The position numbers and the translations under genes were made by a program. A stretch of DNA of 64,000 bases from Nitrospirota bacterium. GTDB lineage: Bacteria > Nitrospirota > UBA9217. Under the pieces are notes generated by a model. It had not been told where the DNA came from, did no database searches, and worked only from the letters and a program-made list of their open reading frames with translations. Shown piece after piece: positions 1-17,653 of the stretch (the first letter of the stretch is position 1; the number at the start of each line of letters is the position of its first letter). The stretch is from positions 860,580 to 924,579 of the forward strand of contig CAWIYV010000011.1 in assembly GCA_963840455.1 (NCBI GenBank), written 5' to 3'.

Positions 1-635
1 TGTTCGCGCAGCTCCATTCTTTCTTCGACGACGTTTTCAACGGCTTTGATCTGGCGCGTCAGAAAATCTATGGACTCCTTGCTGATCTTGCCAGCCAATG
101 CCAGGTCCTCGTTCTGTTCAAGAAACGGCGCAACGCGATCTGTATTCAATGCCTTGACGTCATTCGTCTTGATCCGAAACCCATTGTTGCGGCAAATAAT
201 GTTCTGCAAGCTGATGATGAGCGAAGTCCTGAGCTTTACGAGATGACTTCTTTTGCGTAACAAGTCGCGGATCGGTCTATCTTCTTTCGGGTAAATGTAG
301 CCTTCGGGCAGGATTCCGAGCCGCAGCATCTCGGCCAGCCAGAAGGCATCATGCTGATCGTCTGAATACTTGAGTCCCTTATATTGTTTAATCTCCGTAG
401 GGTTGGCGAGATGAACCTTGTATCCTTCCGCCATGAGTGCATCCACCAACCAGTACCAGTTGTACGTGGACTCGATGACGATGCCGGTAATTGCATCAAT
501 GTAGGGTGCGAGGGCGGAAAGAATTTGTTCCGAATCATTGGGGAGCTTCCTCTTGAACACCCGTTTACCAGTTTCATCGATGATCGCCAGATAACTGTTG
601 CTTGAATGCAGATCAATTCCTGTGTACAATCGCAT
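1..635 (-). CDS. IS110/IS1111-family transposase (N-terminal DEDD RuvC-like domain), runs off left edge
   Basis: Not in ORF track (no stop in window). Hand translation from ATG at 635 (RBS aggagg): MRLYTGIDLHSSNSYLAIIDETGKRVF...IVIESTYNWYWLVDAL...HLANP...YSDDQHDAFWLAEMLRLG, with the GIDLH / EST / DxxDA motifs typical of IS110. Confidence 0.9.
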   Translation of the reverse strand, partial: MRLYTGIDLHSSNSYLAIIDETGKRVFKRKLPNDSEQILSALAPYIDAITGIVIESTYNWYWLVDALMAEGYKVHLANPTEIKQYKGLKYSDDQHDAFWLAEMLRLGILPEGYIYPKEDRPIRDLLRKRSHLVKLRTSLIISLQNIICRNNGFRIKTNDVKALNTDRVAPFLEQNEDLALAGKISKESIDFLTRQIKAVENVVEERMELRE

Positions 636-732
636 ACAGCACCTCCTGGGATGAGATTGGTCTCTTCTCCCAAGAGCATATCAGAGCTTAAACGTTCTGG
701 TATGCTCTGGAGGTGCCCTTTATATGGTTATA
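1..732 (-). mobile_element. IS110-family insertion sequence, upstream end at ~732
   Basis: Transposase plus ~97 bp non-coding end with hairpins (647-672, 673-708). Similarity to the uninterrupted sister sequence at 3885 begins abruptly at 733. Confidence 0.8.
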
Positions 733-895
733 CAGGTCTCTTTTGTTGCATTTCCCTCTTCCCCGCACCTTCGGACGCGGTCCCCTTCCCCTGCGAACCT
801 CTCGCGGTCGGGTCGATACTGTCTCCCTTTATTGATCCATCTACCCCGCACCCCGTTTCACTCCTTCAGTATGCCTCATCAACCAAAGCAGCCGC

Positions 896-1168
896 TCATT
901 TGAATGCGACGGCCGGATGGAGCTGGGCTGTTTCGAAGGTGATCAGTCCCGCCTGGACGAGCGGGTCCTGGTTCACGACCTTGTCGGCTTCCTCCCTCGT
1001 CTCCGCCCTGACGACGATCATACCGCCATGGTCGCCCCACTTGCCGGCCTGCACGAGGACGCCCGCTGCGAGCTGCTGCCTGGCCCATTCCCGGTGCAAG
1101 GGGATCGCCTTGCTGATCTGCGCCCGGTCCGCGTTGGATTTGAACTTGTTGATCGACATGAAGTACAT
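896..1168 (-). CDS. YCII-related protein (copy 1)
   Basis: 90 aa, H-R-E-W...LVQAG...GGMIVV...EEA...DP pattern; RBS gaggga; near-identical paralog at 4048-4320. Confidence 0.85.
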   Translation of the reverse strand: MYFMSINKFKSNADRAQISKAIPLHREWARQQLAAGVLVQAGKWGDHGGMIVVRAETREEADKVVNQDPLVQAGLITFETAQLHPAVAFK

Positions 1169-1248
1169 GCTTGTATCCCTCTTGGGACCCCTCAGGATCA
1201 GGTCTCTTTTGTTGCATTTCCTTCTTGCCGGGAGCCCGCGAGGGTCAC

Positions 1249-3129: not shown

Positions 3130-3903
3130 CTATTTAAGCACATCGACCTGAACATTCCCATAGGGATTTTCATCGGCATCGAGCCTATATCCCATGCAGG
3201 ACGGCATGGGCGTTGCCCCGTCATTGGCAAATATGCCCCACCGCGCGAAAAAGGCGTCGACAACGGCTCCGGTGAAAACAGCCGGGGCCAGGAAAAGATC
3301 TGCATTGCTGGGCTTGACGTGGAAGTGGATATGGCTTCCGATCCCCGCGTTCGGAGGCAGGTACATGTACGCAATGATGTCGCCTTTCGTGACGCGCTGC
3401 CCCCGGGAGACAAGGATGAACTGCTTGTAGAAATCCGTCGACGGTTCGGGGATCATCGGTTCGATGCTATAGGAGAAGCGATAGACCGTTGAGCCTTCCC
3501 GGGCATAGGCGATATCGATGCCGTACCGGTCATTCGACCCGACCGGAAAGTTATAATCGATCCTGTCGATGTAGCCGTCCGCCACGGCGTAGATGGCGGG
3601 ATAATTGGACGGCGCCGTTCCGCCCGTTGGCCAGACGTTCGAGGTATTGTCCCAGTGAACGTGCGCCCCCTGATGGGGTGTGTTCGACCGCCGTCCCTTG
3701 AACGGATGCCCGGCGTCGACATACTGGACGTCTACAAGGAACCGGTCCGAGCGGTTCGCCTGGACCTGCGCGCGGGTGGGCAGGCCCGGGTAGGGATCGA
3801 CCGCGCCGCCGCCTGATCCGCCCCCTCCGCATCCCGGGGACAGGACGAAGGTAAGGGTAATGGCGATGAGGAACCCTATGGGGTCAGGTCTCTTTTGTTG
3901 CAT
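3130..3903 (-). CDS. Lipoprotein with M23-peptidase-like fold
   Basis: Hydrophobic stretch + SPGC lipobox-like, HQGAH...IYAVADG...V.KGD.IA...HIHFH motifs; the only upstream ATG lies within the repeat site. Confidence 0.7.
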   Translation of the reverse strand: MQQKRPDPIGFLIAITLTFVLSPGCGGGGSGGGAVDPYPGLPTRAQVQANRSDRFLVDVQYVDAGHPFKGRRSNTPHQGAHVHWDNTSNVWPTGGTAPSNYPAIYAVADGYIDRIDYNFPVGSNDRYGIDIAYAREGSTVYRFSYSIEPMIPEPSTDFYKQFILVSRGQRVTKGDIIAYMYLPPNAGIGSHIHFHVKPSNADLFLAPAVFTGAVVDAFFARWGIFANDGATPMPSCMGYRLDADENPYGNVQVDVLK

Positions 3904-4047
3904 TTCCCTCTTCCCCGCACCTTCGGACGCGGTCCCCTCCCCCTACGAACCTCTCGGGGTCCGGTCGATGCTGGCTCCCATTATTGATCCATGTACCCCG
4001 CACCCTGTTTCTTTCCTTCAGTGTGCCTCATCAACCAGAGCAGCCGC

Positions 4048-4320
4048 TCATGTGAATGCGACGGCCGGATGGAGCTGGGCTGTTTCGAAGGTGATCAGTC
4101 CCGCCTGGACGAGCGGGTCCTGGTTCACGACCTTGTCGGCTTCCTCCCTGGTCTCCGCCCTGACGACGATCATACCGCCATGGTCGCCCCACTTGCCGGC
4201 CTGCACGAGGACGCCCGCTGCGAGCTGCTGCCTGGCCCATTCCCGGTGCAAGGTGATCGCCTTGCTGATCTGCGCCCGGTCCGCGTTGGCTTTGAACTTG
4301 TTGATCGACATGAAGTACAT
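4048..4320 (-). CDS. YCII-related protein (copy 2)
   Basis: Differs from 896-1168 at 3 of 90 aa. Confidence 0.85.
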   Translation of the reverse strand: MYFMSINKFKANADRAQISKAITLHREWARQQLAAGVLVQAGKWGDHGGMIVVRAETREEADKVVNQDPLVQAGLITFETAQLHPAVAFT

Positions 4321-4619
4321 GCGTGTATCCCTCTTGGGCTTAGAGGTCAGGTCCGTTTGGGGTCGGACTTCAAGACTTAAGGTTCTCTTACTCTGACCAA
4401 CTCTTTAAGATGAAGGACTGAATACGCTCGGGAACAGGTCTTTCATTTCGACATTGAAGCCCCAGGCAGCTGCTGCAGGAAATCTTCGATCCTCGAGGTC
4501 GCACTAATTTCAGGTCCTAATGGCTCGTCTTACTCCGGATCAACCTGGCGGGGACGCGCTCGGTCCTGGATTCTCCTTCTCCCGCTCGTCCGATACGCGG
4601 CCTTGTTCTCACTGATATA

Positions 4620-8055: not shown

Positions 8056-8549
8056 GAAGGGCACCCCACTGAAAACACCTTTACTACATGCCCGGTCGTC
8101 CTCAGTACATTTCGGAAACTTGCCCTGTGGGCTTCGGACATCCGAAATGCTTTACCCTCGGACTCGGTCGCCTGCCTAAATTTAAGCTCCCAGGTGCAAA
8201 CGGCAGTGGAGCTTCGATCCTCAAGGTTGTGTATTTATTCTAATCGCTTTCTATCCCCGGATACAGCTGCGGGGATGCGCTCGCTCCTGGATTTTCGTAT
8301 GGGACTGCCTCAGCGGCAACGGCCACTGTCGCTGCTTCTGCCTTACCCAAGCGCCGGGCAGCCCGGCTGCGATGACTGTGCGTATGCATGGAACGATCAC
8401 AGAACACAGGACTACCGCATGGCTAAAGCAGACACGGCCGAACTCGGTCTTTTACGGGCGAGGGGAAGTGCTGCGATCGCCACAAAATATCGTTTGCTTA
8501 AACAATCCCCACATGCTTAGCACAGCAAGCCACCGGGTTGCCCAATAAA
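8054..8549 (+). repeat. Composite MITE/REP-like element (family C) with nested family-B insert
   Basis: Highly similar to 9146-9438 and to the reverse complement of 21465-22073. Confidence 0.8.
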
Positions 8550-9145: not shown

Positions 9146-9438
9146 TTTGTCACCTTTCTTGCGTGCCCAAGAAAGTGACCCAAAGAAGGGCACCCCACTG
9201 AAAACACCTTTGCTACAGGCTCGGTCGTCCTCGGTACATTTCGGAAACTCGCCCTGTGGGCTCAGACATCCGAAATGTTTTACCCTCGTCCTCTGTCGCC
9301 TGCCTAAATTTAAGCTCCCAGGTGCAAACGGCAGTGGAGCTTCGATCCTCAAGGTTGTGTATTTATTCTAATCGTTTTCTATCCCCGGATACAGCCGCGG
9401 GGATGCGCTCGCTCCTGGATTTTCGTATGGGACTGCTC
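9146..9438 (+). repeat. Family C copy with nested family-B insert
   Basis: Near-identical to 8054-8310. Confidence 0.8.
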
Positions 9439-10004: not shown

Positions 10005-10847
10005 CTACCGCCCGAAGACATCCGAGATCTTTGTTATGCTCGGATCATGCGCATGGATGACCCAGGCCGCTCCAAAGGCGATCGCCAGCACGACGAGAAA
10101 AGGTATGTACGTATCCTTGAACACGCTCCCCATCCAGTCAGGCTTGTTCATCTTCCGGTAGCTCCTGATCAGGCTGGTCCCGAGCAGGAAATCGAATGCC
10201 GCCTCGGACAGGATATGCGGCGCGATAGAGATAAGGTAGATCGCTCCGCCGACCGTTGCCGCCAGCAGGATACCGAGGGCGATCAGGATGATGCCGTCGT
10301 CATCGAAGATACCGGACACGGCATCGCCCACCGAGCTCAGCGCGCCGGACGATGATCCTGCGTCTGCTGGAGGAGGCACGACCATTGCCTGGCTATTCGC
10401 CGCCGTGCCATCGAACGCTGCTGATGCTCCGCCGCCTCCGGAACCGCCGCCTCCGCCGCTGAAGGTAGGCGCTGACCCGCCGGAACCGGAGCCCCCGGAG
10501 AAGCTCGGGAGGTCAGGCAGCACGTCGCCCGCGGAATCCAGCCCCTTGAGCGGCTGCGACGCGGCCACGTACTTGAGCCACAGCTTCACGAAGAGAAAGA
10601 ACGCCAGATAGGCGAAGACGACCGCCAGCGGATAGCGGACCATGATGCTGTCCACGTGAAGGAGCAGCAGGACCTTCGCGGTCAATACGCCGGACAATGC
10701 CGTCGCCAGGAGGATCAGGGACATATGGAACCGCAGGAAGAACCGCTCCTGGACCCTCCGCATGAACGTCTTGCGCACCCGGCCGACAGGGTCTTCCTGT
10801 TGGACCGGTTTCCGGGGAACCTTAAGGTCAGATCGTTCTCCGTGCAT
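10005..10847 (-). CDS. Membrane protein with Gly/Ser-rich linker
   Basis: Several TM segments, FSGGGGGSGGGGAS motif; start uncertain (ATG at 10847 lies in the repeat site, alternative at 10763). Confidence 0.75.
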   Translation of the reverse strand: MHGERSDLKVPRKPVQQEDPVGRVRKTFMRRVQERFFLRFHMSLILLATALSGVLTAKVLLLLHVDSIMVRYPLAVVFAYLAFFLFVKLWLKYVAASQPLKGLDSAGDVLPDLPSFSGGSGSGGSAPTFSGGGGGSGGGGASAAFDGTAANSQAMVVPPPADAGSSSGALSSVGDAVSGIFDDDGIILIALGILLAATVGGAIYLISIAPHILSEAAFDFLLGTSLIRSYRKMNKPDWMGSVFKDTYIPFLVVLAIAFGAAWVIHAHDPSITKISDVFGR

Positions 10848-10906
10848 TTAGGGAACCCTTAGGGTCAGGTCAAAAGAAACCAGCGAACAAGCCCGGCTCT
10901 CTCTCA

Positions 10907-11024
10907 ATTGAAGCTCCCTGCAGCAAGCTGCAGGGAATCTTCGATCCTCAAGGTAGTACTATTTATTCTCATCGCTCGCTAACCCCGCAGCAAGCTGCGG
11001 GGAATGCGCTCGCTCCTGGATTCA
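10907..11024 (+). repeat. Family B palindromic element (ccctgcagcaagctgcaggg / ccccgcagcaagctgcgggg hairpins)
   Basis: Other copies at ~4453, 12686-12847, 17525-17574, 48060-48155, 61655-61753 (reverse) and nested in family C. Confidence 0.8.
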
Positions 11025-12685: not shown

Positions 12686-12847
12686 GTTGAAGCTCCTTGC
12701 AACAAGCTGCAGGGAATCTTCGGTCCTCAAGGTAATAATAGATCATTCTAATCGCTCGCTAACCCCCTGCACTCGCGGTTCCACTCGTAAACGCTGGGGG
12801 CAAGACCCCGCAGCTAGCTACGGGGAATGGGCTCGCTCCTGGATTCA
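12686..12847 (+). repeat. Family B element carrying a further nested ~45 bp unit
   Basis: Extra ccctgcactcgcggttccactcgtaaacgctgggggcaag relative to the 10907 copy; same unit near 48080 and 8846. Confidence 0.75.
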
Positions 12848-17345: not shown

Positions 17346-17653
17346 GGACGATCATCCCTTCGATAAAGAGCTGTGTGGTGACTTTGATGCTTTTCCGAAT
17401 AGCAACGTGCGGCCACTGTTTCTAACTTAGAACCTGAGGGTCAGGTCGATATCACACATTCATAACTCAAGATTCAAAATTCAATATAAATCAACTAACA
17501 AGCTGGCAAGCGCGAGAACAGCGCATTGAAGCTCCCCGCAGCAAGCTACGGGGAATTCGCTCGCTCCTGGATTCAAAGTTCAATGTTCAAGGTTCACTAA
17601 ATCTGCTAAAAGGAGACCCCCTGAGGATCAGGTCTTTCTCTGTGCCTCAGCCA

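Follow-up and report, generated by a model that had tools for sequence, protein, structure and literature searches.

The window analysed here, a stretch of 64,000 nucleotides of a Nitrospirota genome (G000:C11:860580-924579), starts within an IS110-family element. The element is 1527 bp long (G000:C11:859785-861311, when the dinucleotide TG described below is taken as the crossover) and extends in the window up to base 732; its far end, C11:859785, lies outside. It carries a transposase gene of 340 codons (C11:860192-861214), which is preceded by 97 nt and followed by 407 nt of non-coding sequence. Between 1195 and 18558 there are 14 sequences resembling its insertion site; they share one strand and lie between small minus-strand genes. 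The features of the locus are collected in Table 1.

Table 1. Features of the insertion sequence, its target sites and the neighbouring hairpin repeats (window positions unless a contig is named).
Feature	Position	Strand	Remarks
IS110-family (DEDD) transposase, N-terminal 211 codons	1..635 (ORF 3..635)	-	runs past the window start to C11:860192
IS left end, 97-nt leader of the transposase mRNA	636..732	-	nested hairpins sequester the GGAGG ribosome site (642-646)
Left subterminal inverted repeat	712..725	-	ATATAAAGGGCACC on the transposase strand; partner at the right end, outside the window
Terminal extension TATAACC	726..732	-	7 nt; first six bases form a -10-like hexamer
Core dinucleotide	733..734	.	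CA on +, TG on the transposase strand; at both IS junctions, once in the empty site
Target left half	735..750	-	..TGCAACAAAAGAGACC on the transposase strand; guide GAGACC matches the last 5-6 bases
Second intact site	1184..1221	+	variant ..GGATCAGGTC..
Intact (empty) site	3871..3907	+	halves abutted, ..ATGGGGT directly followed by CAGGTCTC..; overlaps the start codon of a lipoprotein-like ORF (3130..3903 -)
9-bp hairpin repeats	4453-4574, 8181-8295, 9309-9423, 10908-11024, 12687-12847, 17526-17579		

The contig sequence itself shows the boundaries of the element, its empty site and another copy inserted in the same site. The 23-mer CAGGTCTCTTTTGTTGCATTTCC occurs three times in the window (733, 1199, 3885) and in none of 100 shuffles; at 733 it is the right part of the site alone, fused to ..TATATGGTTATA. 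The initial annotation had proposed a precise insertion into a repeated site and had predicted that the missing GGGT half would be found at the other IS end; in fact ..CCCCATAGGGT, which contains this half-site (TAGGGT), directly precedes C11:859785. The second copy (C11:837606-838691) has the opposite orientation and an internal deletion of about 490 bp. The two copies agree between ..AAATGGGTG at the right end (transposase strand) and TATAACC.. at the left end, and together with the empty site they fix the left-end boundary. Beyond the element ends, 18 bases on the left (TGCAACAAAAGAGACCTG) and 6 on the right (ACCCTA), 24 in total, are common to both copies, whose sequences then diverge. In the window's intact sites (..GAGACCTGACCCCA.. 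and ..GAGACCTGATCCTG.., transposase strand) nothing separates the two halves, so these 18 + 6 bases belong to the target and not to the element.

TG is the sole stretch with which both the left flank and the element end, and we infer that it is the crossover core. The junction is precise, as had been suggested, but it is not blunt after GGGT: the dinucleotide CA/TG is shared instead, so that the element boundary is ambiguous by 2 nt. Insertion, the chemistry of which is deduced, lies at this core common to donor and target and is without target duplication. The same site is used by both copies in the genome (2/2) and by the nine close relatives in which both flanks are readable (9/9), in agreement with the expectation that other copies would be found there. 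Four diverged remnants of related elements are also present in the genome; three abut site-like halves and the one on C10 is ambiguous. Contigs from other samples lose their match at 700-704 and 2239 of locus L001, that is 2-6 and 7 bases outside the element ends, in a zone where only the conserved half-sites still fit, which is weak evidence for the boundaries. In public sequencing runs a maximum of 0.19 of the sampled words was found in any run; the contigs from such runs (relatives of 90-95% identity) contained neither a right-left (circle) joint nor an empty-site joint and are uninformative on activity. An inversion between the two IS copies, considered as an explanation of the unrelated far flank, is unsupported by the site directions: the sites between the copies (C11:840-848 kb) have the same direction as those outside (806-835 kb).

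The transposase matches PF01548 (E 4e-19) and PF02371 (E 2.1e-11), and the NCBIfam model of IS110-family RNA-guided transposases, NF033542, with 173.7 bits against a cut-off of 140. Pairwise alignment with IS621, allowing for an offset of two residues in the PDB chain, places D8, E55, D93, D96 and S259 opposite D11, E60, D102, D105 and S241, whose roles in the IS621 active site are described in PMC11208158 (in part). These comparisons of protein sequence show a transposase of the family, including its catalytic residues. The catalytic serine S259 is followed in the same alignment by N and not by the G of the family's SG/TG motif. For IS1111 transposases a length of 330-350 aa and the motif GL-P----S(t)G are reported (PMC11187229, in part); here the length is 340 aa and the serine is kept, but the upstream G, L and P positions are not kept in the pairwise alignment with IS621.

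The arrangement of the ends refines the family assignment of the initial annotation. The left subterminal inverted repeat lies 7 nt from the left tip, is complementary to its partner at 13 of 14 positions (one mismatch) and is conserved in relatives. The terminal extensions, when neither TG is counted, are TATAACC (7 bp) on the left and GGG (3 bp) on the right; since one TG must belong to the element, their lengths become 9 + 3 or 7 + 5. In IS1111 elements the subterminal inverted repeats measure about 11-13 bp, the left terminal extension is 7 (or 6) bp and the right one 3 bp long, and the longer non-coding region follows the gene (PMC11187229, in part). On the basis of the subterminal repeat, the 97- and 407-nt non-coding stretches and the 340-aa product, which are traits described in that source, the element is an IS1111-type member of the IS110 family.

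The hairpins and the terminal TATAAC hexamer (727-732, minus strand) noticed in the left end hold up well. The 97-nt leader folds with -44.3 kcal/mol (z -6.32; none of 200 shuffles folds as well) and its GGAGG is paired; according to this folding model, the leader probably keeps translation low. The flank next to the hexamer is without a -35. The right end carries TTGACG, which the joining of the ends would put 18 nt upstream of TATAAC, and a -35/-10 pair across the joined ends, with a spacer of 17-18 nt, is present in 21 of 21 related elements. The element may move through a circle, in which the right-left junction would build a promoter of the sigma-70 type (-35 from the right end, -10 TATAAC from the left end); such a promoter fits the one known for IS621 (PMC11208158, in part).

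The 407-nt region after the gene holds a conserved stem-loop with two guide stretches (L001:1027-1104, minus strand), which lies about 400-470 bases before the first base of the window. The first stretch, TAGGGT, is found at bases 36-41 after the stop codon and is the reverse complement of the right half-site ACCCTA; the second, GAGACCTGA, at bases 54-62, corresponds to the left half-site, the core and one further base, and a small hairpin separates the two. RNAalifold, applied to 25 distinct sequences, predicts 16 pairs, three of them with compensatory changes, arranged as a 10-pair outer stem (which has the three compensatory pairs), an internal loop with both guides, a 3-bp inner stem and a distal hairpin. 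On the 5' side of the internal loop TAGGGT is the complement of the top strand to the right of the core; on its 3' side GAGACCTG, which is the left half-site plus TG, is complementary to the bottom strand. The guides match GGGT(CA)GGTC on both strands, and the complement of the top strand stands 5' of that of the bottom strand, an order also reported for the seekRNAs of IS1111 elements (PMC11187229 section 9, in part). That guide segments matching the site core would be found on a non-coding RNA had been anticipated; they were found on one, but in the downstream region and not in the visible end, where (636-732) the only candidate was an 8-nt match, AAGAGACC, in the leader hairpin, which was rejected in favour of the conserved two-guide loop downstream of the gene. 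An Rfam search with the element and its flanks found nothing at E up to 1, so the RNA is without a curated family. Contigs from RNA libraries cover the non-coding region; they belong to relatives of 90-95% identity and may stem from carried-over DNA.

After the guide loop comes a second stem-loop, built in the same way, which also carries target-like stretches, a point which we count against the model. Its 3' stretch varies with the left half-site (18 elements, mean run 2.28 against 0.21) and has no match to the IS ends. A role as donor-binding loop was considered and discarded, because its stretches resemble the target and not the IS ends. Further on lies a 9-nt repeat of the right junction, composed of the last seven bases of the element, core included, and the first two flank bases. 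This copy was detected in 19 of 21 elements, with one of the others differing by a base and one missed by the search pattern, and its two flank bases take four forms (AC, CA, TC, TA). Excision of IS1111 elements needs target-derived flanks (PMC11187229, in part), and for this reason we would guess that the second stem-loop and the 9-nt junction copy recognise integrated junctions.

Variation among relatives connects the guides with the flanks. One genome per species was searched and 62 loci with relatives of the transposase were retrieved, mostly from Nitrospirota MAGs. Their downstream regions align well, save for short variable stretches exactly at the two guide places. Both flanks are readable in 20 elements, which fall into five target classes on a conserved scaffold and have 73-93% protein identity to the present element. 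Each guide was compared with its own flank and with the flanks of the other classes (274 cross-class pairs); offsets of 0-2 were allowed for the right guide, whose register relative to the core varies between classes by 1-2 nt. Counted contiguously from the core, the match of the left guide to its own flank has a mean of 4.10 against 0.19 across classes, and that of the right guide 5.30 against 0.94; the elements are related, hence these counts are not independent. When each class is represented by one element, the observed total is reached by the true pairing alone among the 120 possible assignments, 1/120 being the floor with five classes. The left guide matches weakly in four loci, with runs of 1 in L012, L026 and L028 and of 2 in L022.

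Taken as a whole, we consider it highly probable (about 0.85) that this is an IS1111-type element inserted at AGACC-TG-ACCCTA, a site chosen via a predicted seekRNA with two guides. The stem-loop would be this seekRNA, a bridge-type RNA which would load onto the transposase and pick the site by pairing with both of its strands.

The repeated site itself appears from its distribution to be a terminal repeat, REP-like, of a family of REP-associated tyrosine transposase elements (RAYT type; Y1, HUH) that is common in this Nitrospirota genus. Four of five sister genomes are enriched in the 13-mer AGACCTGACCCTA with at most one mismatch (20, 14, 46 and 41 matches against 3, 5, 1 and 4 in the control), and the fifth has 4 matches against 3; in the own genome 43 site matches with at most one mismatch compare with 16 in the control. 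In the sister genomes the site flanks a 283-aa ORF which matches PF01797 and, with 95.5 bits against a cut-off of 80, the RAYT model NF047646. At 15 RAYT-type loci of relatives the site is present on at least one flank in all (15/15), on both flanks and pointing outward in 12, and never inward, and the outward sites stand at fixed distances from the gene. The three exceptions are instructive: one has the left end of another IS1111-type element at the core of one flank (L088), one has a 4-base insertion at the core and one has a truncated gene. The own genome has broken rayt remnants only, and solo copies of the site between small genes. The site resembles classical REPs only in part: DNA folding of eight sites gives -1.7 to -7.6 kcal/mol (z +1.0 to -2.0) with stems of 4-6 bp only, so they are not stable G+C-rich palindromes, and rayt-like matches number 12, 19, 25 and 12 in G004, G005, G010 and G011, that is multi-copy, unlike the classical single-copy rayt. 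With its multi-copy gene and the modest number of repeats, the family behaves more like an insertion sequence.

Some further observations concern these sites. In the 5' flank of one RAYT-type gene (L112, G011:C66) the four bases TATA, identical to the first four of the IS left end, are inserted exactly at the IS insertion point and may be an excision footprint. In L088 (G011:C72, 3' flank of the gene) and in L007 relatives of the IS1111 type are inserted at the core of the site directly flanking a RAYT-type gene. At L084, L087, L099, L100 and L110, in flanks of RAYT-type genes of sister genomes, the 8-11 bases that immediately follow the site (after ..TGACC) are tandemly repeated 2-5 times, with a locus-specific unit; we know of no mechanism for such repeats. 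A variant of the site, ..CATTTCATCTTTTCAGGCCTGACCCC.., occurs at G000:C11:859709-859746, C14:231294, C14:237164, C4:120505, C11:832883 and C11:819477; one copy is 50 nt beyond the IS right end and one is beside a RAYT remnant on C14.

A different identity of the site would be that of an attC-type site in a chromosomal integron array which lacks its integrase, and the element would then belong to the attC-targeting IS1111 group with ISKpn4 and ISPst6; we regard this as unlikely. Several facts speak for it: integron-type integrases (TIGR02249 over the cut-off) are present in all five sister genomes and in 12 of the 31 genomes searched, and the own genome has on C7 a TIGR02249 fragment (about 139 model positions, 135.6 bits, the best match there). 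In the first 18.6 kb of the window all sites have the same direction and separate small genes, and a 454-bp module is duplicated from site to site. Some of the small genes look by translation like what we take to be toxin-antitoxin pairs. Targeting of attC by IS1111 members is on record (PMC11187229, in part). Against this, contig C11 has no tyrosine recombinase (no PF00589 match) and no integrase beside the array, the sites flank RAYT-type genes in congeners in the outward arrangement described above, and one intact site overlaps a start codon. An attC is recognised by R''/R' boxes that close an imperfect palindrome of 50-150 nt; the sites here are of about 40 nt and fold weakly in all eight cases tested, and the window has no RYYYAAC/GTTRRRY box pair with a paired stem, in a crude scan that is unvalidated since it also found none beside the integrase genes of relatives. 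In the arrays beside the integrase genes of three relatives the site is absent by a strict pattern. The parallel with attC targeting drawn in the initial annotation is weakened by the tie of the site to RAYT-type genes and by the lack of an integrase on C11, and the support for a functional cassette site derived from it does not hold; what the targeting by the IS shows is a conserved repeat and not a cassette recombination site.

The open frames of the integron-type integrase genes of the sister genomes (L069-L074, L079, L080) reach 450-525 aa, with long N-terminal extensions; these genes are found in several copies per genome, at 80-800 bp from contig ends, and two have identical upstream sequence.

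The duplicated module (733-1186 and 3885-4338, about 95% identity) contains a 90-aa ORF (896..1168 - and 4048..4320 -) which by its translation is presumably YciI-like. It starts at the core of one site and stops about 10 nt short of the next. Because the module is duplicated from site to site and one of its borders is the crossover dinucleotide of the IS, it can be imagined that the site-bounded gene modules are mobile cassettes moved by recombination at the repeat, via an IS1111-type recombinase or a Y1 transposase; we hold this to be improbable. The target-like stretches of the second stem-loop could in that case let the recombinase RNA pair two copies of the site instead of the site and an IS end, and the result would be an integron-like cassette system without an integron integrase.

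As to how the site is chosen, the protein or the DNA structure of the repeat might select the target, with the matching RNA stretches as a by-product of the history of the element. Small hairpins are present at or beside the insertion point in the sites, and a logic of sequence plus structure is reported for ISPpu10 (10.64898/2026.03.19.712850, in part); but the five target classes differ in sequence and each has matching guides in an otherwise conserved scaffold, whose stem pairing is kept through compensatory changes, which makes this explanation very improbable. It is hardly credible, finally, that the 18 + 6 shared bases are part of an element without target specificity and that the intact sites are unrelated look-alikes: exactly these bases are common to both copies in the genome and the termini of IS110-family elements are known to be difficult to locate (PMC11187229 section 13, in part), but the halves adjoin each other in the empty sites at 3885 and 1199, the nine close relatives, which come from other genomes, differ beyond AGACC (left) in all cases and beyond AC (right) in two, and the guides match exactly the shared bases while other classes have other flanks with matching guides.

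The two-guide seekRNA reading, which we prefer, places the element among systems whose mechanism is already known: ISPa11, ISPpu9 and IS621 in REPs, the attC-targeting IS1111 members, and the retargeting of ISEc11/ISXne4. ISPa11 of P. aeruginosa (seekRNA of 96 nt; PMC11187229, in part) shares with the present element the subterminal repeats, the downstream non-coding region, the guide order and a fixed position in a repeated, potentially folded extragenic sequence (REP). It differs in that here the host is a lineage of Nitrospirota MAGs, the target sequence is another one and folds weakly, its transposase genes are multi-copy in sister genomes, and there is no close sequence relation. In ISEc11 and ISXne4 (PMC11187229 section 10, in part) the RNA stem is kept and both target-matching stretches change with the flanks, as here, although in our case the natural reprogramming is seen by sequence comparison alone and with five target classes. 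ISKpn4, ISPst6 and ISPa25 have the same subgroup architecture, and they insert at a constant position of a repeat lying between gene cassettes. That repeat is a genuine integron attC, whereas here no attC boxes were found in the unvalidated scan and the site is tied to Y1 (HUH) genes. IS621, of the IS110 group and inserted in E. coli REPs (PMC11208158, in part), resembles the present element in the DEDD residues with the serine, the 2-nt core common to donor and target, the internal loop of a stem-loop with one guide per strand, and the promoter rebuilt at the circle junction, which is predicted for the element here; in contrast, its RNA is upstream with the guides in the order left then right, its core is CT and it has no subterminal repeats, while here the RNA is downstream, the guide order is reversed and the core is TG. 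ISPpu9 of P. putida REPs (PMC8450116, in part) also has a long folded 5' leader that likely includes the ribosome site, and a small RNA gene downstream of the transposase gene, as is predicted here; the antisense RNA Asr9 is a feature of ISPpu9.

The finding is a clearly resolved example of an established mechanism, in a new lineage, the Nitrospirota; a literature search joining this phylum with IS110 or bridge RNA had no such paper among its eight best matches, by which the existence of one is not excluded. It provides an IS1111-type set from an uncultured lineage in which the guide RNA and its natural targets are readable straight from genomes, and the five target classes on one scaffold are raw material for the engineering of seekRNA and bridge recombinases and for the annotation of IS ends. 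It also corrects the neighbouring reading of a cassette array: the repeat is tied to the RAYT family and an attC-like identity is not demonstrated.

Other features are found around the array. A second repeat family consists of perfect 9-bp hairpins, CCCYGCAGC AA GCTGCRGGG, with conserved flanks, in 6-7 copies that usually lie 50-100 nt from a site; sequence similar to these flanks also occurs near 140.7 kb of C7, at a distance of about 15 kb to the integrase fragment. Repeats with a period of 8 nt (GACRCGGR) lie between genes beside sites at 1258-1300 and 2201-2279 of the window, and runs of this type are also found in a sister genome (L075:9511-9630, 10824-10865). Just before the window, G000:C11:855000-859722 contains large minus-strand ORFs rich in K, N and E, which by their translations we take to be ParB-like/DNA-sulfur-type and SNF2-helicase genes and which would suggest a defence island.
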